This document shows, piece after piece, positions 23,347 through 53,766 of a stretch of 64,000 nt of DNA. This DNA comes from Candidatus Omnitrophota bacterium (lineage in GTDB: Bacteria; Omnitrophota; Gorgyraeia; Gygaellales; Profunditerraquicolaceae). The notes under the pieces are model-generated. The model was not told the DNA's origin. It did not search any database and was given only the letters and a program-made list of their open reading frames with translations. How positions within the stretch are numbered: the first letter of the stretch is position 1; each line of letters opens with the position of its first letter. Made by a program: the position numbers and the translations under genes. The stretch lies in NCBI GenBank assembly GCA_028717885.1, contig JAQUMX010000002.1, positions 12,237 to 76,236 of the forward strand, read 5' to 3'.

Positions 23347-24038
23347 AAAACCGTGATTATCTTTCCGTGGTTTACGACAAAAAACGAACGCCTGTTTCGG
23401 ATTATCCGCAGCAATTAGCAGGGTATTTATCGAAGAGGTTTAACTTGAAGAAAGGGATGCAGTTTTTAGAAATCGGCTCTGGCAGAGGAGATTTCGTAAA
23501 AGAGTTCCAGCACTATGGAATGGTTTGCTCTGCGGTAGACCGCCAGGCCGGATTAAATTACCCCGGAGTAAAATTTTTTCCTTGTGATATCTTGAAAGAC
23601 AGGCTGCCGTTCGGCGATTCTACATTTGATGTGGTTTTTCATAAGTCTTTGGTTGAGCATTTATATGAACCGGATAACCTAATGAAAGAAACTTACCGTG
23701 TGTTGAAGAACTCAGGTAAGTTGATTATTTTGACTCCGGACTGGGAGAGTCAGATGAAGGTATTTTACGAAGATTTTACCCACTCTAGGCCTTACACGGT
23801 TTTGGCAATGAGCGACCTTCTGAAGGTATACAATTTTCGTGCGGTTACTGCGGAAAAATTCTATCAGCTTCCGCCATTCTGGAGGCACCGTTTTTTATTA
23901 ATCTTTGCTAAAGTCCTCCAACTGTTTTTTCCGGTTAAGGCTGCCAGATGGCTTACGGAAAAAACGGGATGGAAATTTTTCCGTTTTTCAGTAGAGTTAA
24001 TGATTCTTGGTTATGGAGAAAAAAATAGTGCAGACTAA
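23343..24038 (+). CDS. Class I SAM-dependent methyltransferase
   Basis: 231 aa. Motif I FLEIGSGRGDF and post-I/II FDVVFHKSLVEH. Confidence 0.75.
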   Translation: MKNRDYLSVVYDKKRTPVSDYPQQLAGYLSKRFNLKKGMQFLEIGSGRGDFVKEFQHYGMVCSAVDRQAGLNYPGVKFFPCDILKDRLPFGDSTFDVVFHKSLVEHLYEPDNLMKETYRVLKNSGKLIILTPDWESQMKVFYEDFTHSRPYTVLAMSDLLKVYNFRAVTAEKFYQLPPFWRHRFLLIFAKVLQLFFPVKAARWLTEKTGWKFFRFSVELMILGYGEKNSAD

Positions 24039-24834
24039 AACCTTTGCCGGATTGGCTAATGTGAATGTCGAACTTACCTCGCGTTGTAATAAAGACTGCT
24101 GGATGTGCGGCCGCAGGGAGAGAGACAAGCTCTATAAGGACATGGCTTATGGCGACATGGATTTCGCGCTGGTGGAGAAAATTGCTTCGGAGCTTCCACC
24201 GGGAATTGTAATCCAGTTACACAATAACGGTGAGCCGTTATTATACCCAAAATTTAAAGAGGTGGTTACATTATTTAAAAAAAGAAACTTTATTACCAAT
24301 ATCGTGACTAACGGAGAGTTGTTGGTAGAGAAATCACAGGAAATTATCGGCATTCTTGATACACTGTCAATTTCTGTTTTTGAAAATGACCGGCGTGCGG
24401 ATATGCAGTTGAAAATAATCAAGGAGTTTATTAAATTAAAAGGCGAAAACAGCCCTTTTACTACTTTAAGATTTGTTGGCAGGGTAGATGAAGCAAAATA
24501 CGCCGATATCAGAATATTAAAAATTAAGAGGCTGTTACATTCTCCTAAGGGGAGCTTCGATTATAAAAGGAAAGATCCGACTATTCCTGAGATCGGGATT
24601 TGCCTGGATTTTTTGAACCACCTGGCCATTGACAGGAACGGCGATGTATCGGTCTGTGTGCGTTTTGATCCAAATCGGGAATTGGTGCTAGGCAACGTAA
24701 GGAATGAAAGTTTACTTGATCTTTGGAATTGCCGCAAAAGGCAAAACATGCTTGCTTTGCATGTTGCAGGGCAAAGAAATAAAATTCCTTTTTGTAGTAA
24801 GTGCCATTTTTGGGGGGTACCTACCGGCGAATAG
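24013..24834 (+). CDS. Radical SAM protein with a Cys-rich SPASM/twitch-like C-terminus
   Basis: CNKDCWMC (codons 24085-24108). C-terminal GDVSVCV ... CSKCHFWG. ATG at 24013; the listed ORF starts at TTG 24007. Confidence 0.75.
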   Translation: MEKKIVQTKTFAGLANVNVELTSRCNKDCWMCGRRERDKLYKDMAYGDMDFALVEKIASELPPGIVIQLHNNGEPLLYPKFKEVVTLFKKRNFITNIVTNGELLVEKSQEIIGILDTLSISVFENDRRADMQLKIIKEFIKLKGENSPFTTLRFVGRVDEAKYADIRILKIKRLLHSPKGSFDYKRKDPTIPEIGICLDFLNHLAIDRNGDVSVCVRFDPNRELVLGNVRNESLLDLWNCRKRQNMLALHVAGQRNKIPFCSKCHFWGVPTGE

Positions 24835-24836
24835 AG

Positions 24837-26225
24837 ATGAGAATATTGCTGATTGTTTATGATAATGATTCGCACCTGTCGAACTTTCCTTTTGGTATAG
24901 CCTATATTGCCGCGGCCTGCCGTAAAGCCGGGCATAAGGTGGAGATTTATAACCAGGATCTGTATCATTGGCCGGAAACCCATCTGCGGGATCTTCTAGA
25001 CCGGGAAGATTTTGACCTGGTAGGGATTGGTGTAGTTGGCGGATATTACCAGTATAGAAAATTACTTAAAATCTCAGAAGCGATAAATCAGTCAAAGAAA
25101 AGGCCTTTTTATTTGATTGGCGGGCACGGCCCATCCCCGGAACCGGAATATTTCCTAAAAAAAACAAAGGCAGACGCGGTGGTTATCGGAGAAGGTGAGG
25201 AAACGGTAGTAGAGCTGTTGCGCGCCTTGGAAGAAAAGCAGAGTTTTGTTGATGTCGCAGGGATTGCTTTTTTGAATCATGGTAAGCTCATCCAGACCCC
25301 TCGGCGTAAATTGATCAGCGATATTGATAAAATCCCTTTTCCCGCGTGGGACCTTTTACCGATGGATTATTACGCGCTTTTTCGCGCGGTAAATATCCGC
25401 AATAACCAGCGTTATATGGCAGTTTTGTCCGGCAGGGGTTGCGTTTTTCAGTGTGCTTTTTGCTATCGTATGGATCCGGGGTTTAGGCCGCGTTCGGCAG
25501 AAAGTATTATTGAGGAAATAAACATCCTTAAAAGCAAATACCAGGTTTCTTATATTGAATTTCTTGATGAATTATTCATGAATTCGGTAGAACGGACAGT
25601 GGGGCTTTGCGAAAGTTTTATTAAGGCTAAACTGGACATTAATTGGGCCTGCAATGGGAGGCTGAATTTTGCCAGGAAGGATGTCTTAAAGCTGATGAAG
25701 GAATCTGGCTGTGTTTTTATTAATTACGGCATCGAATCATTGGATGAGCAAGCATTGCGCCTGATGAATAAAGCGCTGACCGTTAAACAGATTACCGAGG
25801 GGATAGAGAATACTTTGGATTGCGGTATTAGCCCGGGATTTAATATTATTTTCGGAAATCGAGGCGAAACCAAGGAGTCTCTTAAAAAGGGAGTTGATTT
25901 TTTACTTAAATACGATAATCACGCTCAGTTAAGGACAATTAGGCCGGTGACGCCTTATCCCGGTTCACCTCTTTATTATTACGCGATCGAAAAAGGGTTG
26001 CTTAAGGATTGCGCCGATTTCTATGAAAAAAAGCATCTGAACTCTGACCTGCTTTCGGTAAATTTTACCGATTTAAGCGACAAAGAATTCCATCGTGCGT
26101 TATTAGAGGCTAATGTGAAGTTGATCAATAAATATTTTGAGTCTAAAAAGAAATCCGTGGTCAGGCAAAGCGAAAATTTATATTTGAATAAGGACGCCGG
26201 CTTCCGGGGTTACCGGCAAACTTAG
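24837..26225 (+). CDS. Cobalamin-binding (class B) radical SAM enzyme, paralogue A
   Basis: 462 aa from the ATG at 24837, 2 nt after the upstream stop. N-terminal B12-type domain with VIGEGEETVVELL. SGRGCVFQCAFCY at 25440-25463. Confidence 0.8.
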   Translation: MRILLIVYDNDSHLSNFPFGIAYIAAACRKAGHKVEIYNQDLYHWPETHLRDLLDREDFDLVGIGVVGGYYQYRKLLKISEAINQSKKRPFYLIGGHGPSPEPEYFLKKTKADAVVIGEGEETVVELLRALEEKQSFVDVAGIAFLNHGKLIQTPRRKLISDIDKIPFPAWDLLPMDYYALFRAVNIRNNQRYMAVLSGRGCVFQCAFCYRMDPGFRPRSAESIIEEINILKSKYQVSYIEFLDELFMNSVERTVGLCESFIKAKLDINWACNGRLNFARKDVLKLMKESGCVFINYGIESLDEQALRLMNKALTVKQITEGIENTLDCGISPGFNIIFGNRGETKESLKKGVDFLLKYDNHAQLRTIRPVTPYPGSPLYYYAIEKGLLKDCADFYEKKHLNSDLLSVNFTDLSDKEFHRALLEANVKLINKYFESKKKSVVRQSENLYLNKDAGFRGYRQT

Positions 26226-26233
26226 GGGTTGCA

Positions 26234-27421
26234 ATGGCTAAAAGTATAAACTACGCGATAAATTTTGATTTTGAAGAGGTGAATTCTGCGGCTTTTCGTA
26301 ACGCGCAACTGCATTTTCGCAAAAGGCACAGCGGAAAAACAGGTAAAATCATGGTGATCGTGCCTTATTATTTCAAGGACATGTTCTCTAACGCCGATTT
26401 GCTGGCAGTGATTTCGCCAGAAGTCCTTAAGCGTTACGGCCTTTCGCAATACCGTAGGATTTCCGAAGATATCGGTGACTGGAACAGGCGTTGGCCGGAA
26501 AGGATGAGAAACAGGTTATTAGAAATAACATTGGGGATGATTCCGGAAAGGCTGTCGCCGCTAAGAAGCGCGCTTTATTCAAGTATCTACTATAGTTACC
26601 GCGCGAGAAAATATTATGTTAACAGCGGGCTTGAGGCGTATTGCCTGAATTATCTTAAGCGCCAGCAATTCGATTTTAAGTATTTGAGGATTTCCGATTA
26701 TTTTGACGCTTCGACATTTAGAGTCGGTGATTTCAAATTGATCTCGCAATGGGACAGGTATCATCTTTTGATTGATATCATGATCCGTGATGCTAATCTG
26801 TACTATTATCATAGCGCTGATTTACTACAGGATTTATCTCAATGCGCCGAAATTAATCAAGAGCAGGTTGGAAGGCTTAAGGAGTTTCTGGATTTTAAAG
26901 GAAAAAAAGTTATTTTACGTACCAGGAATTTTTTGAAGAAAGCACCGGTACATAACAGCAAGCCGGAAATTTTTTATAGTCTTGCTAAAGGCCTGGTAGA
27001 GAATGGTGTTTTTGTTTTAAACCTAGGGTGCCCGTTGCTTAAATTTCCGATTGATAGCCCTAATTATTTTGAGATCGACCATAATATGCCATTTGGGCTG
27101 GAGCTTGCTTTATGCCAGAATGCAGACGCTTGTTTAATGACGGCTGAGGCCGGGATATTCCATGCTTTTGCGGCAAGCGCGATTACCTTGATCCAATTTG
27201 AAGAAGAGGCGCCAAAAATCGTCTATGCAAAAGAACCGGTATGTTCGTGGTTTGATTCTCGCAAGAAAATCGGCTTGCGTGATATCGACATCAGGGGAAA
27301 GATCGAATCAAAGGAATACGCCTCAGCTGTTAGGTTAATCATTGGGCATCTGGGGAATTCCACCCATCCTGAATTTTTTAAGCCCGGTTTTGATAAACCA
27401 CAGGTTATCCAGATCAAATAG
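26234..27421 (+). CDS. Hypothetical protein (no family recognised; C-terminal half possibly GT-B-like)
   Basis: A 395-aa ORF in the operon frame with tight spacing. No motif I can name. Confidence 0.55.
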   Translation: MAKSINYAINFDFEEVNSAAFRNAQLHFRKRHSGKTGKIMVIVPYYFKDMFSNADLLAVISPEVLKRYGLSQYRRISEDIGDWNRRWPERMRNRLLEITLGMIPERLSPLRSALYSSIYYSYRARKYYVNSGLEAYCLNYLKRQQFDFKYLRISDYFDASTFRVGDFKLISQWDRYHLLIDIMIRDANLYYYHSADLLQDLSQCAEINQEQVGRLKEFLDFKGKKVILRTRNFLKKAPVHNSKPEIFYSLAKGLVENGVFVLNLGCPLLKFPIDSPNYFEIDHNMPFGLELALCQNADACLMTAEAGIFHAFAASAITLIQFEEEAPKIVYAKEPVCSWFDSRKKIGLRDIDIRGKIESKEYASAVRLIIGHLGNSTHPEFFKPGFDKPQVIQIK

Positions 27422-27428
27422 GAATATA

Positions 27429-28319
27429 ATGAAGATTTCTTCTTATGAATGGTTCTTGAACCGGGAAAAAGGCAGGGCTTGTTTAGTAGCGGGAGTAGCC
27501 CCAAGTATTACAGATTTTCCCTTTCAGAAATTTAAAGGAGTTTATCTTACTTGCGGCGACGGAGCGCTGCGTTTAAGGGACCTTTTTGATGCTAATTACT
27601 GGGTAGTGGCAAATGATGTTTTTCCTGTCCCCGGGGAGCATTCAGAGATTATCAACAAGTTTAAAAAGACGGTCTTTATTTTTTCTGATTCAGTGGCCTG
27701 TTCGCGAAAGAATGTCGATACCGAAATTTTTGACAAGGAACTGGAAGTGGATTGGTTTGCATTTGACCAGAGGCATTTTAACGGATCAGCCTGTAGGCAA
27801 GGAGGCGCAAGCTGCTGTAAACTGACTAAGCTTTATCCGCAAAGGTTAACCTTGCAAGAATATATGAAGAAACAGTTTAACCGTCAAGGGTGCTATTCCA
27901 GTGGCTCAACGGTAGCTGTGCATGCTCTGGCTTTCGCAATTTTACTTGGTTGTAATCCGATCTATCTGCAGGGGATTGAAATTCCTGTTTACGCCGATGA
28001 GTATAAGTATAAGCCGGATGCTTATGCGGATAGCTTATTGCCGTTTTCACCGGCCAGAAGGCCAGATTTAAGGAAGTTATTTAATTTTATTTCGGTAGTA
28101 AATTTAGGCAAGAGAAAAATAAAAGGCGCCTTGATTAGAAGCGGCTTCGTCAGGGAAAAATCCCCTTTTTTTAGGGATATCCCCCAGATCCTCGAAGATT
28201 TTAATTATCTTTTAAGCCTGGCCGGAGAAAACGGAATCAGCATCTTCAATTTGAGTAAAACTTCTACCTTGAACAAAGTCAAGAATTTAAAGTACTTGGA
28301 GCCTGCACAAATATGCTAA
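27429..28319 (+). CDS. DUF115 / MptE-like (Maf-type) protein, putative nonulosonic acid transferase
   Basis: 296 aa from the ATG at 27429; the listed 27342 start overlaps the previous gene. YSSGSTVAVHALAFAILLGCNPIYLQGIE resembles the DUF115 core of motility-accessory-factor proteins. Confidence 0.55.
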   Translation: MKISSYEWFLNREKGRACLVAGVAPSITDFPFQKFKGVYLTCGDGALRLRDLFDANYWVVANDVFPVPGEHSEIINKFKKTVFIFSDSVACSRKNVDTEIFDKELEVDWFAFDQRHFNGSACRQGGASCCKLTKLYPQRLTLQEYMKKQFNRQGCYSSGSTVAVHALAFAILLGCNPIYLQGIEIPVYADEYKYKPDAYADSLLPFSPARRPDLRKLFNFISVVNLGKRKIKGALIRSGFVREKSPFFRDIPQILEDFNYLLSLAGENGISIFNLSKTSTLNKVKNLKYLEPAQIC

Positions 28320-29314
28320 ATGTCAGGGTTTCTTATCCTTTTTCATCTTGGCCCATAGGCTATCAGACGCCTGGCTCGAAAGGGGAGTGGGGGAACTGCC
28401 GTTTTTTTATAAACCAGGAAATCCCGGAATGTGATTATTGGATTGTCTATTATTCTTTGTTGAAGCCCGAAAGCCAGGTTTGCCCAAAGCAAAATACGAT
28501 TCTTTTTGCCACGGAAACCCATACTGTCTTGAAGTATGACCCCGTATTTTTAAAACAATTCGCTACAGTCATCGCTTCTCAAAGAGGGCTTCCACATTCT
28601 CGGGTAATATTCGGGCAGCCTGCTTTTCCATGGCACGTAGGAAGAAAGGAAAAAAACAACCGCAATTTAAATTTTACCATGGGTTACGATTGTTTGAAGG
28701 CAATTAAAGAATATAAAAAGGATAAGCTGATATCCGTGGTATCTTCGAGCAAGGCTTTCACTAAGGGGCACTGCCTCAGGCTTGATTTCGTGAGAAAATT
28801 AAAAGAATACTTTGGCGAGAGAATCGATGTTTTTGGCCGGGGAATCAGGGATTTTGAGGATAAATGGGATGTGGTTGCTCCCTATAAATACCACATCGTG
28901 TTGGAAAATAATAGTGCGCCTGATTATTGGACGGAAAAACTCTCCGACGCTTTTTTAGGATGCAGTTATCCGTTATATTACGGGTGTACAAACATCAAAG
29001 ACTATTTTCCTGAAGGCTCATTTACTTGTATTGATATGAATGACGCAGATTGGGCTATTAAAAAAATCGAATCCTGCATTAACGGCCAGGTTTATGAGCG
29101 GTCTATCGGCAAGCTCTTGGAAGCAAAAAGCCTGATATTGGATAAATATAACTTTTTTCCTTATGCGGCCGCTTTGGTCAATGGACTAGGCAATCAGAAC
29201 GATTATTTGAACGAAAAAATTACTTTATTTCCACAGGAAGAAAAGATGAACTTTTATCAACGTTGCGTGGGCAAGGCAAGGTACCTTACTGATAGCCTGC
29301 GGGGAAAGTTTTAG
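28313..29314 (+). CDS. Glycosyltransferase family 10 (alpha-1,3/4-fucosyltransferase-like)
   Basis: 333 aa. YKYHIVLENNSAPDYWTEKLSDAF matches the GT10 FENS...Y-x-TEK motif. Confidence 0.75.
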   Translation: MLNVRVSYPFSSWPIGYQTPGSKGEWGNCRFFINQEIPECDYWIVYYSLLKPESQVCPKQNTILFATETHTVLKYDPVFLKQFATVIASQRGLPHSRVIFGQPAFPWHVGRKEKNNRNLNFTMGYDCLKAIKEYKKDKLISVVSSSKAFTKGHCLRLDFVRKLKEYFGERIDVFGRGIRDFEDKWDVVAPYKYHIVLENNSAPDYWTEKLSDAFLGCSYPLYYGCTNIKDYFPEGSFTCIDMNDADWAIKKIESCINGQVYERSIGKLLEAKSLILDKYNFFPYAAALVNGLGNQNDYLNEKITLFPQEEKMNFYQRCVGKARYLTDSLRGKF

Positions 29315-29321
29315 GAATTCA

Positions 29322-30821
29322 ATGAAAAAGAAAATACTGCTGATTAGCAGTAGTTTTGAAGAAGTTTCTTTGATCTCCTCCGGGATTGACCCGAAATTAG
29401 AGATTAAGTATTCGGAGGACGCAAATTATCCTCTTGGCCTGTCGTACCTGGAGTCTTATCTTGTTTCCCGCGGGCATCAAGCATTGACTTTGATGTCCAA
29501 TACTTGCAGTTTTGAGGAATGTTTTAAGAAAACCGTAAAATTGATAGAAGATTTTGCCCCGGATCTAATCGGGTTGCAAATGCTTACTCAGAACCGCGTA
29601 AGTACTTACAGGCTGATTGAACACATTCACCAACAACATCCAGGGATTAAAATTATTATAGGAGGGATTCATGCCACGATAATGCACCGCCAGATTATCG
29701 AAAAATACCCTTTTTTGATTGTAGTTTTGGGAGAAGGGGAGTTAACGCTTGCGGAATTGGCCGAGAAATTACCCCTTGATAATAAGGAATTAGAGGGGGT
29801 CCCCGGAATAGCTTTTAGCCGCGCCGGCGCAGTTTTAGAAACAGCGCCAAGAGGGTTAATAAATGATTTAGATGCGCTTCCTTTTCCGAATCATGAAATC
29901 TTTTTTAGTGAGCAAAGGACTTGCGCTTCTATTATTACTTCGCGAGGTTGCCCATTTGCCTGTAGTTTTTGTTGTTTAAATTCAATATCCCAGCGAAAAG
30001 TAAGAAGCAGGTCAATTCCTAATGTTATTGCGGAAATCGAATGGCTTCTAAGAAAAAATCCTCAAATAACCACGATATGGATTCAGGATGATGGTTTCTT
30101 GATTAATAACCAGCGCGCGGTCGAATTCTGCAATGAAGTCATCCGCAGAAAATTGAAAGTGAATTTTGTTTGTAGCGGCAGGGTAAAGCCCATTAGCAGC
30201 GAGGTGGTAAAAAAATTGGAAGAGGCTAATTTTCAGAAGGTACTCTTTGGTATGGAGAGCGGCGATAATAGTATTTTGAAAAGATGCCATAAGGAAATCA
30301 CTCAAGAAGACGTGCTAAGGGCGTTTCAGCTTTTTAAAAGGTCAAAAATAGAATTACAGGCTTTTGTGATTCTGGGGTTGCCGGGAGAAGATGAGCAAAC
30401 CGTCGCGGAAACCATAAGGTTTGTAAAAAAACTGCAAAAAATCAAATATATGTATTATCCCAACGTATCAATTTTAACGATTTATCCGGGGACAGAAGTA
30501 TATCAAATCGCTAAGAATGCCGGCATAATCGATGACCAGTATTGGTTAACCGATCAGACGACACCGATTTTTACTTTGGAGAACAGCCGGGAACATCTTT
30601 TTGCATTTAAAGAGAAGGTTCTGAATAATATTTCTTCTGATAGAGTGTTTACTCCTGCAGGATTACGGGCACAATTTTTCATGATCCCTGCAATTATTTC
30701 CTATATTTTTCAATATAGGAATTTTAATATTATCAAAGGCGCTGTTTCTAAGTTTTTCAGGGCATTTTTATCGCCAAGGGCTTACGATTCCTTGAAAATG
30801 GCCTATACTAGGCTTAAGTAA
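29322..30821 (+). CDS. Cobalamin-binding (class B) radical SAM enzyme, paralogue B
   Basis: 499 aa. VLGEGELTLAEL, and TSRGCPFACSFCC at 29949-29972. Confidence 0.8.
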   Translation: MKKKILLISSSFEEVSLISSGIDPKLEIKYSEDANYPLGLSYLESYLVSRGHQALTLMSNTCSFEECFKKTVKLIEDFAPDLIGLQMLTQNRVSTYRLIEHIHQQHPGIKIIIGGIHATIMHRQIIEKYPFLIVVLGEGELTLAELAEKLPLDNKELEGVPGIAFSRAGAVLETAPRGLINDLDALPFPNHEIFFSEQRTCASIITSRGCPFACSFCCLNSISQRKVRSRSIPNVIAEIEWLLRKNPQITTIWIQDDGFLINNQRAVEFCNEVIRRKLKVNFVCSGRVKPISSEVVKKLEEANFQKVLFGMESGDNSILKRCHKEITQEDVLRAFQLFKRSKIELQAFVILGLPGEDEQTVAETIRFVKKLQKIKYMYYPNVSILTIYPGTEVYQIAKNAGIIDDQYWLTDQTTPIFTLENSREHLFAFKEKVLNNISSDRVFTPAGLRAQFFMIPAIISYIFQYRNFNIIKGAVSKFFRAFLSPRAYDSLKMAYTRLK

Positions 30822-30832
30822 AGAGGGTAATC

Positions 30833-31786
30833 ATGGATAAAGATAGAAGGATTTTTGTTGCTGGGCATAAGGGAATGGTAGGTTCTGCCATCTTGAGGGC
30901 GTTAAAAAAAGATGGCTATGAAAATGTCATCTTAGCTAATAGGCAAGAACTTGACTTGCGTGATGAAACCGCAGTCCGGGAATTCTTTAAAGAGAAAAAA
31001 CCGGAATATGTATTTTTGGCTGCTGCCAGGGTAGGCGGTATAAAAGCGAACATGTCTTTTCCTGCAGAATTCCTGCGCGATAACCTGATGATTCAAAATA
31101 ATGTTATTCATTATTCGTATATATCAGGGGTAAAGAAGTTGATTTTTCTTGGTTCTTCCTGCATATATCCAAGGGATTGCCAGCAGCCGATAAAGGAAGA
31201 ATATTTGTTTACCGGGCCGCTTGAGCCTACTAATGAAGGTTATGCTTTGGCAAAAATAGCGGGTTTGAGAATGGTACAGTATTACTTCAGAGAGCATGGT
31301 TTAAAGAGCATCTGCCTGATGCCATGCAATTTATACGGCCCAAATGATAATTTTGACCCGGAGAGTTCTCATTTTTTCCCGGCCTTGGTAAAGAAATTTG
31401 TTGATGCCTGTGATAACAATAGTGCTTCGGTAACGCTTTGGGGGACTGGCAATGCCAGGCGCGACCTGATGCATGTTGATGATTTGGTGAGGGCGCTATT
31501 CTTTCTTTTGGGCAAACTGGATTCTCCCGAAATCATCAATATTTCCAGCGGCCAGGATGTTTCAATCAGGGAGTTGGCAGAGCTTATTGCCAGAAAAGTC
31601 GATTTTAAAGGCAATATCATTTGGGACACTAAGATGCCTGACGGGATGCCCAGAAAATACCTGGATATTACAAAATTAAGGAATTTAGGTTTTCAATCGC
31701 AAATTAGCCTGGAAGATGGCGTTAGCGCCGTGATTGCGGAATATCGCAAGCTTAAAAATAATAAGGGAGAGCCTGCGCATGAATAG
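30833..31786 (+). CDS. fcl: GDP-L-fucose synthase (GDP-4-keto-6-deoxy-D-mannose 3,5-epimerase/4-reductase)
   Basis: 317 aa. RIFVAGHKGMVGSAI, GSSCIYP, YALAKIAG and CNLYGPNDNF. Confidence 0.85.
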   Translation: MDKDRRIFVAGHKGMVGSAILRALKKDGYENVILANRQELDLRDETAVREFFKEKKPEYVFLAAARVGGIKANMSFPAEFLRDNLMIQNNVIHYSYISGVKKLIFLGSSCIYPRDCQQPIKEEYLFTGPLEPTNEGYALAKIAGLRMVQYYFREHGLKSICLMPCNLYGPNDNFDPESSHFFPALVKKFVDACDNNSASVTLWGTGNARRDLMHVDDLVRALFFLLGKLDSPEIINISSGQDVSIRELAELIARKVDFKGNIIWDTKMPDGMPRKYLDITKLRNLGFQSQISLEDGVSAVIAEYRKLKNNKGEPAHE

Positions 31787-32720: not shown

Positions 32721-32721
32721 G

Positions 32722-35585: not shown

Positions 35586-35599
35586 AAAGGGAAACCAAG

Positions 35600-36592: not shown

Positions 36593-36601
36593 AGGTAAAT
36601 T

Positions 36602-38077: not shown

Positions 38078-38082
38078 GAGGG

Positions 38083-40068: not shown

Positions 40069-40069
40069 G

Positions 40070-42993: not shown

Positions 42994-43012
42994 TGTTTTG
43001 GAGGGAGTTGAA

Positions 43013-46779: not shown

Positions 46780-47567
46780 AGATTACTGCGCAAGAGGTCA
46801 GAAGGATAATCCTGGAGCAGGCAAAAAGGGCCAATGTCGGGCATATCGGCTCAGCATTATCAATTGCCGATATTGTCGCAACATTGTATGATAAGGTGCT
46901 TAATATTCCCGATCCTGATTCAGTGGAACGGGATAAATTTATCCTTTCTAAGGGGCACGCTGCCTTGGCTGTTTATGCGGCATTATACCTTAAGGGCTGG
47001 ATTAGCGCCGAGGAATTAAATACCTATTGTGCCGATGGCAGTTTATTGGGGGTACATCCGGAGCATGCCCTTACAGGAATAGATTTTTCCACCGGGTCTC
47101 TTGGCCATGGCCTAAGTATTGCTTCTGGAGCAGCGCTTGCAGCAAGGTTAAGAAATAAGCATCAGCGCGTATTTGCCTTAATCAGCGACGCCGAGTGCAA
47201 TGAAGGATCGGTCTGGGAGGCAGTGATGTTTGCCGCGCATCACCGGCTTTCCAATTTAATTGCAATTATTGACCTGAATGGCCAACAGGCATTCGGTTAT
47301 ACCAAAGAGGTGATTGCTATGCCTGATATGGAAGGGCGCTGGAAATCTTTTAATTGGGATACTCACGAACTAGACGGGCATAATCAGGAACAGATCCGTA
47401 AGGTAATTGAAGGATTGAATACTGGCTCCGGACAGCCGCATGTTTTGATTGCACATACAACATTTGGCAAGGGTGTATCTTTTATGGAGAATAAAATTAA
47501 ATGGCATTACTGGCCGATGTCCGAGGAAGAATATAAAACCGCATTAAACGAGGTTAAAGGTTATTAA
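46776..47567 (+). CDS. Transketolase, N-terminal (ThDP-binding) subunit
   Basis: 263 aa. GHIGSALSIADIVATLY, SKGHAALAVYA and SDAECNEGSVWEA...DLNG. Confidence 0.85.
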   Translation: MKITAQEVRRIILEQAKRANVGHIGSALSIADIVATLYDKVLNIPDPDSVERDKFILSKGHAALAVYAALYLKGWISAEELNTYCADGSLLGVHPEHALTGIDFSTGSLGHGLSIASGAALAARLRNKHQRVFALISDAECNEGSVWEAVMFAAHHRLSNLIAIIDLNGQQAFGYTKEVIAMPDMEGRWKSFNWDTHELDGHNQEQIRKVIEGLNTGSGQPHVLIAHTTFGKGVSFMENKIKWHYWPMSEEEYKTALNEVKGY

Positions 47568-48502
47568 TGAGAAAGGCATTTGTCAATACGCTTGTAGAAT
47601 TGGCTGCTAAGGATGAGCGGGTGCTCTTGCTTACCGGAGACTTAGGATATACGGTCCTAGAGCCGTTCATAGAAAAATTTCCCGATAGATTCTTCAATGT
47701 GGGCGTCGCTGAGCAGAATATGATTGGGATCGCAACTGGATTAGCTGAGTCAGGATTCATTCCTTTTGTTTATTCTATCGCTACCTTCGCTTTGTTAAGG
47801 CCGTATGAATTTATCCGCAACGGGCCCGTATTGCATAAGCTTGCAGTGCGAATCATCGGGTTAGGCGGCGGTTTTGAGTATGGCCCTGCAGGAATAACTC
47901 ATCATGCGTTGGAAGACTTGGGAGTGACGAGGCTACAACCGGGGATGGCCGTAATAGCCCCTTCTGATTTTCAGCAGGCTCGCTCTGCGCTTTTGGCTTC
48001 CTGGAATTTACCAGGGCCGGTTTATTATCGTTTGGGCAAAGATGAAAAAACAGTTATACCTGGATTACAGGGAAAATTTGAATTGGGTAAGCCTCAAGTT
48101 ATCCGGGAAGGCACTGACTTGGTAATTCTTACTTGCGGGGGAATAGCTTGCGAAGCATACGCTGCAACTGAAATACTTGCCTCTAAAGGCATATCTACAG
48201 AGGTTGTTTTAGTTTCTACATTAAGCCCCGCGCCTATTAAGGATCTTGCAGGAATCCTGGAAAATTTTCCGTTAGCCCTTACAGTAGAGGCACATTATAC
48301 CACCGGAGGAATCGGTTCGTTGGTTTCCGAAATCATTGCAGAAAAAAATATTCCGTGCCGCCTGGTGCGTTGCGGCGTTGACAGTACCAAGAATGTAGCA
48401 ACGGGAAGCCAGGCCTATTTACACAAAAAATATAATCTTTCTGCAGATGCCCTGGCCAAGCAAGTTATACAAAATCTGCGGATGCGGAGGGTAAACAGGT
48501 GA
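47567..48502 (+). CDS. Transketolase, C-terminal (pyrimidine-binding) subunit
   Basis: 311 aa. FFNVGVAEQNMIGIATGLA. TAATG coupling to the N-terminal subunit. Confidence 0.85.
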   Translation: MRKAFVNTLVELAAKDERVLLLTGDLGYTVLEPFIEKFPDRFFNVGVAEQNMIGIATGLAESGFIPFVYSIATFALLRPYEFIRNGPVLHKLAVRIIGLGGGFEYGPAGITHHALEDLGVTRLQPGMAVIAPSDFQQARSALLASWNLPGPVYYRLGKDEKTVIPGLQGKFELGKPQVIREGTDLVILTCGGIACEAYAATEILASKGISTEVVLVSTLSPAPIKDLAGILENFPLALTVEAHYTTGGIGSLVSEIIAEKNIPCRLVRCGVDSTKNVATGSQAYLHKKYNLSADALAKQVIQNLRMRRVNR

Positions 48503-49212
48503 CGAGTAATTTGATTTCATTAGTATTGCCGGTTTATTTTCAGGCAGACCATATTGACAAGGTAGTTAAGGAATACGATCAGATATTGCAACGCCTGCGC
48601 CTTCAATATGAGATGATCCTAGTGGTTAATGGGGCAGGAGACGAGTCTTTAAAGAAATGCGATAATCTGGCAAAAGAATATGCTAATGTACAGGTAGTTT
48701 ATATTAGGCAGAGTGGATGGGGCAGGGCTGTGAGAGCCGGGTTAAAAGAATGCAAAGGCGATTTGGTCTGTTATGCTAATTCCGCGCGGACTAGCGCCAA
48801 AGACCTGTTGTTGATATTAACATATGCTATTGCTTATCCTGATGTAGTGATTAAAGCGAACCGTGAAAGCAGGGATTCCTGGCAGCGCAGGATAGGCTCC
48901 TGGTTATATAACATTGAATGCAGGACATTATTTAACCTGCCTTATTGGGATATAAACGGAACACCGAAAATATTCCCGCGTTCTTTTAATAAGCTGCTTT
49001 CGCTCACTGCAAATGATGATTTGATTGATCTTGAGTTTAATCTTATCTGCCGCAGCGAGAATTATCCGGTGATTGAGGTGCCTATTTTTTACAGCAAGCG
49101 CCAGGGCGGCAGAAGCACAACAAATTATTATTCCGCATTTAAGCTGTATCTTGGCGCTTATAAGATTTGGCAAGAAAAAAGAAGGCAAGATGAAAGAAAG
49201 AAGAAAACGTAA
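48499..49212 (+). CDS. Glycosyltransferase family 2 (short, polyprenol-phosphate glycosyltransferase-like)
   Basis: 237 aa with a GTG start. ISLVLPVYFQADHI ... LVVNGAGDES, a variant of the DDGSxD motif. Confidence 0.6.
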   Translation: MTSNLISLVLPVYFQADHIDKVVKEYDQILQRLRLQYEMILVVNGAGDESLKKCDNLAKEYANVQVVYIRQSGWGRAVRAGLKECKGDLVCYANSARTSAKDLLLILTYAIAYPDVVIKANRESRDSWQRRIGSWLYNIECRTLFNLPYWDINGTPKIFPRSFNKLLSLTANDDLIDLEFNLICRSENYPVIEVPIFYSKRQGGRSTTNYYSAFKLYLGAYKIWQEKRRQDERKKKT

Positions 49213-50353
49213 CCTGGGGCGGATTTGGTACGGCCACAACATGGAATGGCGTGATCCTGCTCAGGTTGTCGGGCAATGGAAGGAAGCTTCCCATGTTGCT
49301 CCGGGGTTAATTGCATATTCAATACGGGGTAAATGGTGGGATATCCTGGCAGAAAATAAAATTACACTTTTGGTGACGCGTGAATATGAACATCTGGCAA
49401 TGGCAATGCGGGCGGATAGCAAAGGGGGTTCAATTTCCTATATCAGGCTGGCGCATCCTTCCGGTTTAGCAGTTGACCGGGATAAAAATATTATTTATTT
49501 GGCTTCTACGCGTAATCCTAATCAAATTTATGACTTTTTGCCGGCAAAATCAGGTATCCCAGTGTTGCTTCCGCACAGGTCACGGTTTTTTCCTGGTAAT
49601 CTCTATATCCATGATTTAGCCCTGATAAAGAATACGCTTTTTGCAAATGCTGTCGGGCATAATTCAGTAATTCGAATCCTTGATCATGGGAATTTTCTCC
49701 CTGTTTGGTGGCCTAAATGCATGGAGCAAGCCGGTAAGGCAGCATTTTCGCGTAATTACATACAATTAAATTCTATTGCTTGCGGAAATAGTTTACGCAA
49801 TTCATTCTTTTCTGCATCTGCAGACACAATTTCGCGGATTAGGCCTGGGCAGAAGAATTTTCCAGTAGATAAACGTGGCGTGATTTTTTCAGGAGCTACT
49901 CGGGAACCAGTAGTCAGGCAATTGACGCGCCCACATTCTGCTCGTTTATATCATAAAGAGCTATGGGTCAATAATAGCGGTTACGGTGAATTTGGGATAG
50001 CCGATACAAAAAAAGGGACATTTTCGCCGCTAAGGCGTTTTTCAGGCTGGACGCGCGGCCTGTGTTTTTACAAGAATATTGCTTTTGTGGGGACTTCCAG
50101 GGTAATTCCGCGTTTCCGTCAATACGCTCCAGGCGTAGACATGAATAAAAGCGAGTGCGCAGTCCACGCTATTGAAATAAAATCAGGAAAAATTTTGGCA
50201 AGCTTGGTTTGGCCTCAGGGGAATCAAATATTTGCCCTGGATTGGATAAAAAGCGGGATAACCACTGGTTTCCCTTTTTTCGCTTTTGACAGTAAGACAG
50301 CAAAAAAACAAAAAGAACTTTTTTATAATTTCAAAATTGGAGGGAATGCATGA
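49190..50353 (+). CDS. Hypothetical protein, possibly TIGR03032/DUF4915-like beta-propeller
   Basis: About 387 aa from the ATG at 49190 (alternative ATG at 49241). The listed 49073 start overlaps the GT2. The family assignment is only a memory-based resemblance (LLVTREYEHLAMAM..., repeated beta-strand-like pattern). Confidence 0.45.
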   Translation: MKERRKRNLGRIWYGHNMEWRDPAQVVGQWKEASHVAPGLIAYSIRGKWWDILAENKITLLVTREYEHLAMAMRADSKGGSISYIRLAHPSGLAVDRDKNIIYLASTRNPNQIYDFLPAKSGIPVLLPHRSRFFPGNLYIHDLALIKNTLFANAVGHNSVIRILDHGNFLPVWWPKCMEQAGKAAFSRNYIQLNSIACGNSLRNSFFSASADTISRIRPGQKNFPVDKRGVIFSGATREPVVRQLTRPHSARLYHKELWVNNSGYGEFGIADTKKGTFSPLRRFSGWTRGLCFYKNIAFVGTSRVIPRFRQYAPGVDMNKSECAVHAIEIKSGKILASLVWPQGNQIFALDWIKSGITTGFPFFAFDSKTAKKQKELFYNFKIGGNA

Positions 50354-51279
50354 AGGATGGATTTCGGTTCCTGATGATCAGCGCAATGTATGAAAATGGC
50401 GGCAACACTACTCAAAGGTTTTTGGACGGGCATCCTCAGATGCTGGTATACCCCTTTGAATCACAGCTGGGCACGCGCCTGGTAAATGACAGCCTAACTT
50501 CGTTTTTTCCGGTAAAATACCGCTGGCCAGTATTTGACCTCGCAGCTTGCGCCCTGGATGATTACCGCATGATTATTGATGAAGAAGCAAAGGTAAGAGC
50601 CAGGACGCCTAATGTAAGTAAATTCCGCCATATGCCTTTTGATTTTTCCGACGATGAGCGTTGCCAGATCTACCAGCATTACATCAATAGGGAGGGCCGG
50701 TCAAGGCCAAAAAACATAAGCGCATTCTTTCGCTCTACTTTTGATGCCTGGAAAGATTATAACAGATCAGGCAAGGAAACTGTTTTTGTCGGGTATAGCC
50801 CGGTTATTGTTGTAGATGCAGAAAAAATCTTAAGCGAGTTGCCGCAAGCACATTTGTTGCATGTCGTGCGTAATCCCTGGTCTGCTTATGCCGATACTAA
50901 GAAAAGGCCCGTACCTTTATCGTTGGCAAATTACTTATTGGCCTGGAATTTAAACCAGTATTTTGCTTTGACTTTTAAGCTAAAATTTCCCGGCAGGCTG
51001 CACATCTTGCGTTTTGAAGATATTATTGAGAACCCCTTGAAAGTATTAGGGGGTTTATGCAGGAAGATTGGGCTTAATGCCTCATCTACGCTAAAAATTC
51101 CTACCTGGAATGGCAGAGAACTGAAAGAAGTTTATCCGTGGGGTACGATACGTAAGCCTGAACCAAAAGCAAATCTTGCCACAGCAAAAGAATTAACTGT
51201 TCAGGAGAGAAACGAAATTCGTGTGCTGGCACGGCAATATATCGAGATTTTTAATTACAGAAACTTTATACATTCATGA
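50350..51279 (+). CDS. Sulfotransferase-family protein
   Basis: 309 aa. N-terminal P-loop-like SAMYENGGNTTQRFL (5'-PSB position) and HVVRNPWSAYAD (3'-PB-like RNP...S). Confidence 0.6.
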   Translation: MKDGFRFLMISAMYENGGNTTQRFLDGHPQMLVYPFESQLGTRLVNDSLTSFFPVKYRWPVFDLAACALDDYRMIIDEEAKVRARTPNVSKFRHMPFDFSDDERCQIYQHYINREGRSRPKNISAFFRSTFDAWKDYNRSGKETVFVGYSPVIVVDAEKILSELPQAHLLHVVRNPWSAYADTKKRPVPLSLANYLLAWNLNQYFALTFKLKFPGRLHILRFEDIIENPLKVLGGLCRKIGLNASSTLKIPTWNGRELKEVYPWGTIRKPEPKANLATAKELTVQERNEIRVLARQYIEIFNYRNFIHS

Positions 51280-52259
51280 AACGAGTATTAATTACCGGCG
51301 CAACCGGGTTTGTTGGAGCTAATCTTGCCAGAAGGATGTTAACAGAAGGCCATTCTGTGGTTCTATTGGTTCGCCCTGGCTCAAATCGTTGGCGGCTTCA
51401 TAACATAGAAAAAGAGGCACAGATTCTGGAATTGGACCTTTGTAACACAGAAGCTATTTTTCAGGCAGTAGGCAGGGCCCGCCCTGAATGGGTGTTTCAC
51501 CTGGCAGCGCACGGAGCTTATTCCTGGCAGAGCGATTTCACACAAATGATCCAAACTAATATTATTGGTACGATTAATTTGGTTAACGCGTGCTTGAAGG
51601 CCGGCTTTGAAAGTTTTATCAATACAGGCTCTTCTTCAGAGTATGGTTTTAAGGATCATGCGGTTACGGAAGATGAATTGCTTGAGCCTAACAGTGATTA
51701 TGCAGTAACCAAGGCATCAGCTACGCATTTTTGTTTGAGCCTCGCCAAAAGCTACAATGCGCATATCACTACATTGAGGCTGTATTCAGTTTATGGAATT
51801 TATGAAGACCCTGCAAGATTAATCCCTGCGCTAATCTTGAATGGCTTAAGAGGCAAATTTCCTTTATTAGTGAGCCCGGATATTGCGCGGGATTTTGTTT
51901 TTATTGAAGATGTAGAAGCTGCATACCTGCTTGCTGCTCAACAGAAAAAATACCAGCCGGGTGCAATTTATAATGTAGGAACCGGCATTCAAACGACTTT
52001 ACAACAGGCGGTAGCAACGGCGGCAAAGTTGATGCAGATAAAAGAACAGCCACGCTGGTCCTCAATGCCATCACGAAAATGGGATACCGGTACCTGGGTA
52101 GCAAATAACCGTAAAATCAAAGAGGAGCTAGCTTGGGTTCCGGCTTATTCCTTTGAAAAGGGGTTCCAGAAGACCCTGGGCTTATTCCGCAATAACCAGG
52201 GGATATTGGATTTTTACGAACATGCTTCGCTAGTTTCATCAGGAAAGAACCGTGATTAA
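51276..52259 (+). CDS. NAD-dependent NDP-sugar epimerase/dehydratase (extended SDR)
   Basis: 327 aa. VLITGATGFVGANL, GSSSEYG and YAVTKASA. Confidence 0.8.
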   Translation: MKRVLITGATGFVGANLARRMLTEGHSVVLLVRPGSNRWRLHNIEKEAQILELDLCNTEAIFQAVGRARPEWVFHLAAHGAYSWQSDFTQMIQTNIIGTINLVNACLKAGFESFINTGSSSEYGFKDHAVTEDELLEPNSDYAVTKASATHFCLSLAKSYNAHITTLRLYSVYGIYEDPARLIPALILNGLRGKFPLLVSPDIARDFVFIEDVEAAYLLAAQQKKYQPGAIYNVGTGIQTTLQQAVATAAKLMQIKEQPRWSSMPSRKWDTGTWVANNRKIKEELAWVPAYSFEKGFQKTLGLFRNNQGILDFYEHASLVSSGKNRD

Positions 52260-52260
52260 T

Positions 52261-53766
52261 ATGGATAATAAGAAAAATATGCTTTTGATTAATCCGGCTG
52301 TAAGAAAAGAAACCCAACACCCGATTTTTAATTCTGTGGTTTTTTCATCGCCTCCGTTGGGGTTGGGGTATATCGCTGCCTATCTTAGGGCAAACAATAA
52401 GATGGAAGTACGGATTATTGATGAAGTAGTTAGCCCTCTGTCTGAGTTAGAGATAGAAAAACAGTTAAACTGGTTGGGAAGCCGGCCGACAATCGGTATT
52501 TCTTGTCTTACTGCTACCTATTCCAGGGCAAAAGAGCTGGCACGTACAATAAAGCAGATTAAACCTGATTCCTTTGTAATTTTTGGCGGAGCGCATCCCA
52601 CTGCCTTGCCTGAAGAATCACTAACAGATAAAACGGTTGATTTAGTCGTGCGCAATGAAGGGGAGGTTACCCTGGCAGAAGTTTGTGAAGCGAAATACTT
52701 TGGGCGCGATTGGAGCAATATAAAGGGGATTTCTTTTATAAAGAACGGCATGATTCAGCATAATCCGGGAAGAGGATATGCAGAACTGGATTCTTTTCCT
52801 GATTTTCCCTATGATCTATTTGAGCATAACCTTGAACATTATTCCGATTTTGGGATGATTTTAAGTTCACGCGGCTGTCCATTCGACTGTATTTTTTGTT
52901 CCAATCGTATTATCACGGGAAAAAAATACCGTACCTTTAAGGTTGATGCGGTAGTCGGCCAAGTAGAAAAACTGGTTTTACGCTACAATCAGAAGAGTAT
53001 CTATTTTGTTGACGATAATATCGTAGTCGATAAAAAAAGGTTTTTTCACCTGACTAACATGATTATGGAGAGAGGGCTGCATAAGAAGGCTTTCTTTACC
53101 GCTCAGTTCAGGGGCGAAGATATGACAGAAGAAATCCTTGTTCAGATGAAAAAAAGCAATTTTAAAATGCTTTCCTGCGGCATGGAAACCGGTTCCAACC
53201 GTTTAATGGCATTATTAAATAAAGGAGAGACTGTTGAAGAAATCAAGCAGGGGATTGAATTAGCCAGCTCCAGTGGTTTTTTGACTACTACCACTTTTAT
53301 TTTTGGTATTCCTACAGAAACAAGAAAAGAACGCTTGGATTCCTCAAGGCTGGCCAGGCGCTTAAAACTTGATAGCGCCAGGTTCAATATCGCCATTCCT
53401 TATCCCGGGACAAGGCTGTTTGAAATTGCCAAATCTGAAAACCGATTGCATGTTTCGCAGGAATGGAAGAATTTTAATGTCCAATATTATCTATTTGGCG
53501 ACGACATACCTTATATTCCTGCATCCTCCGGCCGTTATGCTTTGATTTTTGATACTATGATGGCAAACCTTAAGTTTTACCTTAGGCCTAAGATCATCTG
53601 GACTATAATCTTCAAGACAGATATTACCGGAGGAGGTGTTTTGTCCTTACAGAAAAGAAGAAACATTTTACGGACATATTTAAACCTGGTTTATATTTGG
53701 TTTTTTATTATGAAAAGATTCTGTTATGTGGGTATTAAGGCGGCATTTGAAAAAAATGGCAATTAA
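52261..53766 (+). CDS. Cobalamin-binding (class B) radical SAM enzyme, paralogue F
   Basis: About 501 aa (ATG 52261; the listed GTG 52252 is also possible). VRNEGEVTLAEV, and SSRGCPFDCIFCS at 52876-52899. Confidence 0.8.
   Translation: MDNKKNMLLINPAVRKETQHPIFNSVVFSSPPLGLGYIAAYLRANNKMEVRIIDEVVSPLSELEIEKQLNWLGSRPTIGISCLTATYSRAKELARTIKQIKPDSFVIFGGAHPTALPEESLTDKTVDLVVRNEGEVTLAEVCEAKYFGRDWSNIKGISFIKNGMIQHNPGRGYAELDSFPDFPYDLFEHNLEHYSDFGMILSSRGCPFDCIFCSNRIITGKKYRTFKVDAVVGQVEKLVLRYNQKSIYFVDDNIVVDKKRFFHLTNMIMERGLHKKAFFTAQFRGEDMTEEILVQMKKSNFKMLSCGMETGSNRLMALLNKGETVEEIKQGIELASSSGFLTTTTFIFGIPTETRKERLDSSRLARRLKLDSARFNIAIPYPGTRLFEIAKSENRLHVSQEWKNFNVQYYLFGDDIPYIPASSGRYALIFDTMMANLKFYLRPKIIWTIIFKTDITGGGVLSLQKRRNILRTYLNLVYIWFFIMKRFCYVGIKAAFEKNGN

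Follow-up and report, generated by a model that had tools for sequence, protein, structure and literature searches.

What are seven radical S-adenosylmethionine (SAM) enzymes doing among the sugar genes of a single bacterial locus? The question is raised by a 64-kb stretch of contig JAQUMX010000002.1 (assembly GCA_028717885.1) from a Candidatus Omnitrophota bacterium, which we analyzed at its full length and refer to as the window; all coordinates are window positions. It carries one small radical SAM gene, S0 (24013-24834), and six larger ones, B1 (24837-26225), B2 (29322-30821), B3 (36602-38077), B4 (38083-40068), B5 (45118-46779), and B6 (52261-53766). From its gene content, the region from ~18 to 63 kb (~45 kb) appears to be a surface-glycan superlocus of the lipopolysaccharide (LPS)/O-antigen type. 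This superlocus appears to have been pieced together from portable sugar-pathway cassettes, at least five in number, that each bring their own radical SAM enzyme for tailoring.

By analogy with characterized enzymes, we propose, with a probability of roughly 60%, that the radical SAM enzymes tailor sugars of this surface glycan. Orthologues of all six B proteins and of S0 adjoin the same sugar-pathway genes in unrelated phyla, which argues for a role in glycan biosynthesis. The initial annotation of this DNA had linked the enzymes to a glycan locus and suggested looking for orthologues that co-occur with glycan genes; such co-occurrence was found for the six and for S0, and the link is supported. 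In the proposed scheme, each cassette would supply one type of residue, and its radical SAM enzyme would edit the carbon skeleton or oxidation state of that residue. Several unusual activated sugars would then be joined into a lipid-linked heteroglycan, which a PglK-like exporter would flip and a WaaL-like ligase would attach.

Architecture of the seven radical SAM proteins

All seven open reading frames (ORFs) lie on the plus strand where the initial annotation had placed them. Three of the ATG starts (24837, 52261, and 24013) fall within slightly longer ORFs opening with GTG or TTG; the start at 24837 is supported because B1 homologues share its length, nearly all having exactly 462 residues. 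The CX3CX2C motifs of the six large proteins begin exactly at nucleotides 25440, 29949, 37274, 38698, 45760, and 52876, and the CNKDCWMC motif of S0 is placed at 24085, as described. A motif of the G-E-G-E type, said to lie about 80 residues before each CX3CX2C, is found 73-92 residues upstream in every case. Profile searches gave Radical_SAM (PF04055) matches above the gathering score in all seven proteins (34-84 bits against 29.5), with no further Pfam match to this domain among the other ORFs of the window. Five of the six large proteins also score above the gathering threshold of the B12-binding domain (PF02310; 57-70 bits against 32.1). B4, at 25 bits, falls below this threshold but still aligns with cobalamin-bound TokK from residue 4. 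An N-terminal Rossmann-type domain therefore precedes the radical SAM core in all six, and the class B two-domain architecture claimed for them is real, with PF02310 recognized in five and homology to TokK in the sixth.

Pairwise identities among the six large proteins are 23-29%, in agreement with their description as strongly diverged; this level of identity rules out a recent duplication of the B genes. Their neighbors were also correctly described as nucleotide-sugar enzymes and glycosyltransferases, as judged by Pfam and NCBIfam annotation. The label "SPASM-type" given to S0 requires qualification. Its ORF (24007-24834) passes the SPASM profile PF13186 with 43.1 bits against a gathering score of 21.5. 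Besides the radical SAM cysteines (Cys25, Cys29, and Cys32), however, exactly four more (Cys197, Cys215, Cys261, and Cys264) are kept in 50 of 50 orthologues (Cys264 in 49), and Cys240 is not conserved. Four further conserved cysteines point to one auxiliary cluster of the twitch type, as in BtrN, rather than the two clusters of a full SPASM domain.

Sugar-pathway cassettes around the radical SAM genes

B4 encodes a 661-residue protein of the TokK/ThnK/CysS type. Among solved structures it matches TokK (E 1.6e-85) and CysS (E 1.2e-47), and the Rossmann domain, the radical SAM core, and part of the C-terminal domain align with those of TokK/ThnK (carbapenem) and CysS (cystobactamid). In TokK, Trp76 lies under the corrin, Trp215 is part of the active site, and the carboxylate of the substrate is anchored by Arg280; the two tryptophans are common to TokK, ThnK, and CysS and are not shared by other characterized methylases (preprint 10.1101/2021.07.10.451909). 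B4 has Trp76, Trp215, and Arg279 (the equivalent of TokK Arg280) at the aligned positions, and none of the three varies in a family alignment of 24 members. B4 thus combines the homology and the tryptophan pair that define the TokK/ThnK/CysS group. Given the retention of these hallmark residues together with TokK homology, B4 is probably a cobalamin-dependent C-methyltransferase, possibly an iterative one, and we strongly infer methylcobalamin-dependent radical C-methylation from its sequence. A 5'-deoxyadenosyl radical would abstract a hydrogen atom, the resulting substrate radical would take a methyl group from methylcobalamin, and a second SAM would re-methylate cob(I)alamin. The NCBIfam KedN5-family model (NF033712) matches B4 with 269.8 bits against a cut-off of 700, over model positions 15-402 of 624. 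Several radical C-methylations had been claimed for this locus. The claim is only partly supported: specific evidence, namely the homology to TokK and CysS and the three residues above, was found for B4 and for none of the other five.

Unlike TokK and CysS, which are encoded among beta-lactam or nonribosomal peptide synthetase (NRPS) genes, B4 is surrounded by genes for nucleotide-sugar enzymes. Upstream lie the alpha (33587-34534) and beta (34524-35585) subunits of an E1-type thiamine-diphosphate enzyme, a short-chain dehydrogenase/reductase (SDR) resembling GDP-mannose-4,6-dehydratase (GMD; 35600-36592), all annotated by Pfam, and B3, the class B-type partner of B4. Downstream are an HddA-like GHMP kinase (40070-41053) and an HddC-like nucleotidyltransferase (ORF 40870-41793, domain from ~41074), both recognized by NCBIfam, a DegT-family protein (41794-42993), an Fcl-like SDR (42998-43972; NCBIfam), and a family 4 glycosyltransferase (GT4; 43973-45121; Pfam). 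Replacement of the lysine that binds pyridoxal phosphate (PLP) by histidine, together with cysteine ligands (for a [2Fe-2S] cluster in E1), is the hallmark of E1/ColD sugar 3-dehydrases. In the DegT-family protein, His184 aligns with the PLP lysine of an ordinary DegT aminotransferase encoded elsewhere in the window (4123-5235), and a CxCx2Cx9C insert is present. Both motifs are kept in orthologues from two other loci (L009 and L080; 61-65% identity). Judged by these sequence features, the protein is an E1/ColD-type 3-dehydrase and not an aminotransferase; it is RfbH-like (265 bits against an NCBIfam cut-off of 423), and no gene for an E3-type reductase was seen near 41794-42993. A housekeeping pyruvate dehydrogenase or transketolase was rejected as an identity for the thiamine-enzyme genes at 33587-35585 and for a similar pair at 46776-48502, because their scores are under the equivalog cut-offs, E2 and E3 genes are absent, and orthologues are kept inside sugar cassettes.

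The gene set at 33587-43972 would fit the logic of yersiniose and colitose biosynthesis and of E1-type two-carbon branching in antibiotic sugars. As in the CDP-yersiniose (DdhA-D, YerE, YerF) and GDP-colitose (ColB-D) pathways, it includes a nucleotidyltransferase, a 4,6-dehydratase, a His-type (pyridoxamine phosphate) 3-dehydrase with a cysteine cluster, a thiamine enzyme, and a ketoreductase-type SDR. It differs from them in activation by an HddA-like kinase, in having an E1 alpha/beta pair in place of YerE, and in the insertion of two class B genes. The E1 pair itself is comparable to AviB1/B2 and AlmDI/DII, which form two-carbon branches by E1-type chemistry. In the proposed pathway, the kinase and nucleotidyltransferase would activate a sugar, and the 4,6-dehydratase and the iron-sulfur 3-dehydrase would convert it to a 3,6-dideoxy-4-keto intermediate. 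The thiamine enzyme would add a two-carbon branch according to yersiniose/aldgarose logic. An unactivated carbon would be methylated once or repeatedly by B4, and B3 would perform a further step.

This association recurs widely. Full-length relatives of B4 that are ~50% identical occur in many phyla, and 2759 of the 8000 candidates scored in the B4 search matched at E<=1e-20. In the three loci inspected (Albibeggiatoa, Planctomycetales, and one metagenome-assembled genome [MAG]), a B3 orthologue (~49-50%) adjoins B4 every time, accompanied by the GHMP kinase (55-56%), the nucleotidyltransferase, and a transketolase or E1-like pair; SDR genes are also present in all three (that of Albibeggiatoa by Pfam only, with no tblastn match) and a DegT gene in two of them. 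Scanning a single genome per species yielded 80 loci, 17 of them with a B4 orthologue of at least 38% identity and at least 5 kb on both sides. B3 (48-53% identical) was found in 10 of these 17, the kinase in 8, a thiamine-enzyme subunit in 8, and one or more homologous sugar-nucleotide or thiamine genes in 13. The cassette extends over Planctomycetota, Alpha-, Gamma-, and Deltaproteobacteria, Vicinamibacterales (Acidobacteriota), Nitrospinota, and others. Neighbors of the same kinds (the kinase at 52-64% identity, the GMD-like SDR at up to 73%, and E1 alpha/beta at 38-57%) are found with more remote TokK-like paralogues in Vicinamibacterales, other Acidobacteriota, Elusimicrobia, Leptonemataceae, Patescibacteria, and a Bradyrhizobium isolate.

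TokK-like genes are found in another arrangement, too. An uncultured Eubacteriales MAG (L039, 1-21899) holds about nine tandem genes of 590-670 residues on one strand, mostly TokK-like class B; none of the sugar genes known from the window lies close by. Four to seven such genes per 22 kb are present in MAGs of Acutalibacteraceae and other Clostridia and in one of Elusimicrobia (L070; also L040, L036, and L068). These arrays appear to represent a different use of the family.

S0 and B1 close a putative nonulosonic-acid cassette (19823-26225). It opens with a NeuB-like synthase (19823/19943-20779; PF03102, 232 bits) and a PseF-like CMP-sugar cytidylyltransferase (20782-21540; PF02348, 70.6 bits). 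Their NCBIfam scores are under the cut-offs, with 250 bits against 399.65 for NeuB and 110 against 205.7 for PseF. Pfam assigns the following genes to a class III (omega-type) aminotransferase (21530-22915), a VOC/glyoxalase-fold protein (22915-23346), and a SAM methyltransferase (23343-24038). S0 then overlaps the methyltransferase gene, and B1 follows it directly. The best PDB sequence match of S0 is BtrN (E 2.8e-10), with an alignment limited to residues 18-114. S0 resembles this twitch-domain radical SAM dehydrogenase of 2-deoxy-scyllo-inosamine (butirosin) in its size and its single four-cysteine auxiliary site, and the presence of an aminotransferase gene close by recalls the BtrN/BtrS pair. 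It differs from BtrN in being encoded within a nonulosonic-acid cassette rather than among aminocyclitol genes. By analogy, we infer with moderate confidence that S0 performs a BtrN-type alcohol oxidation feeding the transaminase. The synthase and cytidylyltransferase would provide an activated nine-carbon acid, S0 would oxidize a secondary alcohol to a ketone by hydrogen-atom abstraction, and the ketone would be aminated by the aminotransferase encoded next to it. For B1, the following step would be either C-methylation of the product or, as with AprD4, dehydration of a vicinal diol.

A metagenome scan for S0 returned 60 loci, 32 of which are at least 6 kb long. Among these 32, a NeuB orthologue (47-65% identity) is present in ~24 and the CMP-transferase in ~26, with the VOC protein in 13, the methyltransferase in 12, the aminotransferase in 6, and a B1 orthologue in 11. 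B1 relatives are 68-75% identical across Omnitrophica, Kuenenia/Brocadiaceae, WOR-1, Proteobacteria, and Firmicutes. In Desulfoscipio geothermicus the B1 gene is bordered by flagellin/Maf genes on one side and by a complete legionaminic-acid-type set on the other; in all, full sets of this type flank B1 orthologues in two loci (L091 and L154). Desulfitobacterium hafniense (a MAG contig) and Syntrophomonas have B1 beside Maf, a CMP-transferase, and a CBS-nucleotidyltransferase, with NeuB present too in the Syntrophomonas locus. In a proteobacterial MAG, the genes next to B1 encode a NeuB that lacks the SAF domain, a CMP-transferase, an aminotransferase, and a radical SAM/SPASM protein resembling S0.

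The NeuB-like synthases themselves vary. Those in the window (19823-20779) and in locus L155 (10538-11386) have 278-282 residues and no SAF domain, and the Firmicutes synthases flanking B1 carry one. The SAF-less form may be a distinct subtype tied to the S0/B1 cassette.

The next cassette (26234-33585) has a fucose-type gene complement. It comprises a conserved unknown protein (26234-27421; 38% identical to a Methanoregula orthologue), a weak Maf/MptE-like protein (27342-28319), a GT10-like glycosyltransferase (28313-29314; Methanoregula orthologue, 39%), B2, an SDR resembling GDP-L-fucose synthase (30833-31786; NCBIfam Fcl, 418 bits against a cut-off of 500), a GT2 (31734-32720), and a GT11 of the alpha-1,2-fucosyltransferase family (32722-33585), the others being Pfam assignments. 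Acting between the GT10 and GT11 steps, B2 would alter either a 6-deoxyhexose of the GDP-fucose type or the residue once transferred. B2 relatives in Kiritimatiellae, Elusimicrobia, Patescibacteria, Methanoregula, and Diapherotrites are 50-57% identical. In all three loci inspected (L088-L090; from Elusimicrobia, Methanoregula, and one metagenome contig), B2 is flanked by a GT10 or Glyco_trans_1_2 transferase and by GT11, and an SDR and a DegT gene accompany this triad in two of them. The Methanoregula locus (L089, on a 1.13-Mb contig) has a five-gene block at 4400-11550 in common with the window, at 38-59% identity: the unknown protein at 26234, GT10, B2, GT11, and the Fcl-like SDR (59%). This correspondence suggests inter-domain transfer of a glycan cassette between a bacterium and a methanogenic archaeon. 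Natural fusions of a B2-type radical SAM protein with a C-terminal FkbM-family (PF05050) methyltransferase domain, ~750 residues in total, also occur (P0168, P0181, P0183, P0192, P0198, and L090 at 8001-10256).

Downstream of GT4, B5 and B6 would tailor further residues, B5 together with a split transketolase (46776-47567 and 47567-48502; Pfam, NCBIfam) and B6 together with a YfhO-like polytopic membrane protein of a GT-C-type family (53726-56029; PF09586, 34.5 bits), possibly on a lipid-linked sugar. Between them lie a GT2 (48499-49212; Pfam), a DUF4915/TIGR03032 protein (49073-50353) and a sulfotransferase (50350-51279), both annotated by Pfam and NCBIfam, and an SDR (51276-52259; Pfam). The best PDB sequence match of both B5 and B6 is 9CCB, the glutamine C-methylase of methyl-coenzyme M reductase (MCR). 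A B5 orthologue (47%) in locus L090 adjoins a Wzx-like flippase and an FkbM methyltransferase, and in Kuenenia (L092) a B6 orthologue (37%) stands directly upstream of a YfhO-like orthologue (38%). A two-sequence profile of B2 and B6 returned B2 relatives alone among its top 120 matches, and the evidence for B6 comes from the Kuenenia locus only.

Some features of this region stand apart. Residues ~466-514 in the cysteine-rich C-terminal tail of B5 contain two CxxC pairs (CPLCGC...CKNCGK) resembling a zinc ribbon, which the other five B proteins lack; the tail has a faint NCBIfam match to Elf1 (E 0.0022). The DUF4915/TIGR03032 and sulfotransferase genes (49073-51279) hint at a sulfated residue. 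The Kuenenia stuttgartiensis locus (L092, 867-19734) is of the same kind as the window, with one plain radical SAM gene and four of the class B type (two of them orthologues of B1 and B6) interspersed with genes for a YfhO-like protein, an LIC12162-family protein, methyltransferases, and glycosyltransferases.

Methylation, elimination, or another product

Several points weigh against the proposal that these enzymes tailor a surface glycan, or against the chemistry it implies. All of the proposed chemistry is by analogy, and each of the seven radical SAM proteins scores below the NCBIfam equivalog cut-offs. AprD4, which acts on a sugar, and ArsL have the class B architecture as well, and both are cobalamin-free (2026 B12-radical SAM review). 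Moreover, cobalamin is bound without a conserved sequence motif, in the base-off rather than His-on state and with a variable residue under the cobalt (structural review). B1, whose model has AprD4 as its best fold match, may be no methylase. TokK-like genes stand in tandem arrays without sugar genes in Clostridia, and the family is thus not restricted to glycan loci. For B5 and B6, the context is a single syntenic locus each. Finally, no initiating phosphoglycosyltransferase was found in the window, and the acceptor of the glycan may be LPS, a protein, or flagellin.

B1, B2, B3, B5, and B6 may carry out either C-methylation or an AprD4-like elimination. In the main rival to our proposal, unlikely though far from negligible, most of the six are cobalamin-free redox or elimination enzymes, such as AprD4-like diol dehydratases, BtrN-like dehydrogenases, or epimerases; they would then make deoxy and amino sugars without oxygen in an anaerobe, and the glycan link would be kept with no C-methyl branches. 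AprD4, the 1,2-diol dehydratase of apramycin C3'-deoxygenation, has the same two domains, acts on a sugar, and uses no cobalamin despite its Rossmann-like domain. B1, B2, and B3 all have their closest PDB sequence in AprD4, and B1 has its closest full-length fold there too: the AlphaFold2 model of B1 (mean predicted local distance difference test [pLDDT] 87.6) superposes on AprD4 with template-modeling (TM) scores of 0.75/0.76, ahead of TsrM, OxsB, MgmA, CysS, and TokK (0.64-0.68). The resemblance of S0 to BtrN and its position beside an aminotransferase fit the same explanation. However, the AprD4 sequence matches span the radical SAM core only, identities to AprD4 are 17-20%, its NCBIfam model scores 43-101 bits against a cut-off of 500, and no partner resembling AprD3 was identified. 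Five of the six proteins also exceed the Pfam B12-binding threshold in their N-terminal domains, and B4 is clearly TokK-like. The B2 model (pLDDT 90) fits CysS, OxsB, TsrM, TokK, and AprD4 about equally, so that its fold search does not tell cobalamin binders and AprD4 apart; across the B1 and B2 models, TM scores to TsrM, OxsB, MgmA, CysS, and TokK are 0.62-0.68. Tailoring of sugar carbons by class B enzymes also has precedent. GenK, GenD1/GntE, and MoeK5 (gentamicin, moenomycin) belong to the same enzyme class and have a carbohydrate carbon as methyl acceptor according to the review, and they are the nearest functional precedent for our proposal. Those enzymes tailor pseudo-oligosaccharide antibiotics of actinomycetes, whereas the enzymes of the window and their relatives are encoded in surface-glycan cassettes of anaerobes and archaea. 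No NCBIfam model for GenK, GenD1, MoeK5, or Fom3 was among the matches of the window proteins.

Two further explanations would move the enzymes away from surface sugars altogether. The best partial NCBIfam matches are HpnJ, BchE, and a ladderane-lipid B12 protein (KedN5 for B4), with HpnR also among the models matched; B2 and B6 have hydrophobic C-terminal helices, and B6 is paired with a polytopic membrane protein. The substrates might accordingly be lipids (lipid A acyl chains, hopanoid-like or other membrane lipids, or the polyprenyl carrier), with the genes merely co-transcribed with envelope genes. We regard this as improbable: the best HpnJ and BchE scores are 70-164 bits against cut-offs of 481-578, the models for HpnR, ladderane-B12, PhpK, MCR glutamine methylase, BzaD, and AprD4 all score under their cut-offs as well, and the conserved neighbors are nucleotide-sugar enzymes and glycosyltransferases, not lipid genes. 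Less probable still is a diffusible glycosylated secondary metabolite of the aminoglycoside or orthosomycin kind in place of a cell-surface polymer, even though the closest analogues (TokK, CysS, AprD4, BtrN, GenK, and the E1 alpha/beta branching enzymes) all come from antibiotic pathways. Against it, the window encodes heptosyltransferases, eight to ten glycosyltransferases from five families, membrane transferases of the GT-C type, and a flippase and a ligase resembling PglK and WaaL; B1 orthologues, moreover, lie within flagellin glycosylation islands. No polyketide synthase, NRPS, cyclitol synthase, or resistance gene was found in the window by Pfam.

Surface-glycan setting and significance

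In the sugar-tailoring reading that we favor, the setting is a diderm cell. The whole window is one plus-strand gene array with short or overlapping junctions. Upstream of the cassettes, Pfam identifies an O-antigen ligase-like gene (Wzy_C/WaaL, 62-1036; PF04932, 76.7 bits) and two GT9 heptosyltransferases (1011-1982 and 3031-4104; PF01075, 111 and 117 bits), with ManC, GmhB-like, PriA, GAPDH, and RmlA/D/B genes also upstream of the glycan region; this gene content indicates a diderm with LPS. A small winged-helix-turn-helix gene (17748-18095) directly precedes a PglK/MsbA-like ABC exporter (18085-19917; Pfam ABC_membrane and ABC_tran). NCBIfam scores of 304 bits for PglK and 284 bits for MsbA, each under its cut-off, are consistent with this assignment, and the exporter is likely a flippase for the lipid-linked glycan. 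O-antigen assembly of the Helicobacter pylori type, which uses Wzk (PglK), likewise combines a PglK-like exporter, a WaaL-like ligase, GT10, and GT11 in one locus, and differs from the window in the absence of a WecA-type initiating enzyme from the latter. Beyond B6 and the YfhO-like gene, the array continues with WecB UDP-GlcNAc 2-epimerase (56526-57635; NCBIfam, 350 bits, above the cut-off of 210) and, by Pfam, an SDR (57652-58608), a methyltransferase (58605-59399), a GT2 (59420-60157), a PMT_2/ArnT-like GT-C (60154-61713), and an unknown protein (61713-63152).

Two tandem, diverged GalT/HIT-family genes (11676-13700), which also match DUF4921 and DUF4931_N, lie between a formyltransferase gene and GAPDH. 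GC content drops to 0.384-0.385 at 54001-56000 and 60001-62000, with strongly negative AT skews (-0.24 and -0.16); the genes for the YfhO-like and PMT_2 polytopic membrane proteins fall in these stretches, whose composition probably reflects T-rich hydrophobic codons rather than foreign DNA. Scans of the window with Rfam (at gathering thresholds) and for tRNA genes gave no match.

The initial annotation had further held that this chemistry is not described for bacterial polysaccharides. In the literature library searched, we found no report of it for O-antigen, capsule, nonulosonic-acid, or flagellin-glycan pathways, and no relevant paper on radical SAM or cobalamin with polysaccharide, lipopolysaccharide, or heptose; papers on Omnitrophota and Elusimicrobia that mention radical SAM concern other subjects. 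None of the substrates listed in a 2026 review of B12-radical SAM enzymes is a polysaccharide; the review describes GenK, GenD1, and MoeK5 as class B methylases of antibiotic sugars and counts more than 100 class B sequence groups without an assignment. C-methyl sugars are known in LPS, one of them being the virenose of Coxiella, which was predicted to arise from a classical C-methyltransferase (PMC3539893). The accompanying view that seven radical SAM genes put the locus far outside ordinary glycan loci does not hold up as well. The families are very large, with 1748-4309 matches at E<=1e-20 in each of three family searches (8000 candidates scored per search), and class B genes are often clustered: in 24 of 39 species-representative genomes, two to nine of them lie within ~22 kb of a TokK-like gene, in some cases in arrays without sugar genes. 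The window is thus less of an outlier than had been supposed.

Known class B enzymes tailor antibiotics, cofactors, lipids, and peptides. The window and its synteny assign at least five large unassigned class B groups to surface-glycan pathways (nonulosonic acid, fucose-type, and branched dideoxy-sugar) in bacteria and archaea. It is possible, at somewhat less than even odds, that these are the first recognizable members of several widespread, cross-domain radical SAM systems for surface-glycan tailoring, among which nonulosonate remodeling and TokK-like C-alkylation stand out. If so, a BtrN-like oxidase, a transaminase, and B1 would carry out an anaerobic remodeling of nonulosonates after condensation, destined for LPS here and for flagellin in Firmicutes, and a TokK-like enzyme would iteratively C-alkylate a branched 3,6-dideoxy sugar of the yersiniose type. 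The products, C-alkylated nonulosonates and deoxysugars with higher branched alkyl groups, would be classes not yet described in any polysaccharide.

The value of these assignments lies in conserved cassettes and culturable carriers that make the chemistry testable. Each cassette defines candidate substrates for enzymologists in its nucleotide-sugar intermediates, and culturable carriers include Desulfoscipio geothermicus and Desulfitobacterium hafniense (for which a MAG contig was examined) for B1 and the Bradyrhizobium isolate for a TokK-like paralogue. The proposal predicts new monosaccharides on the LPS and flagellin of anaerobes, which would matter for glycan structure databases, for phage and immune recognition, and for the biocatalytic C-alkylation of sugars.

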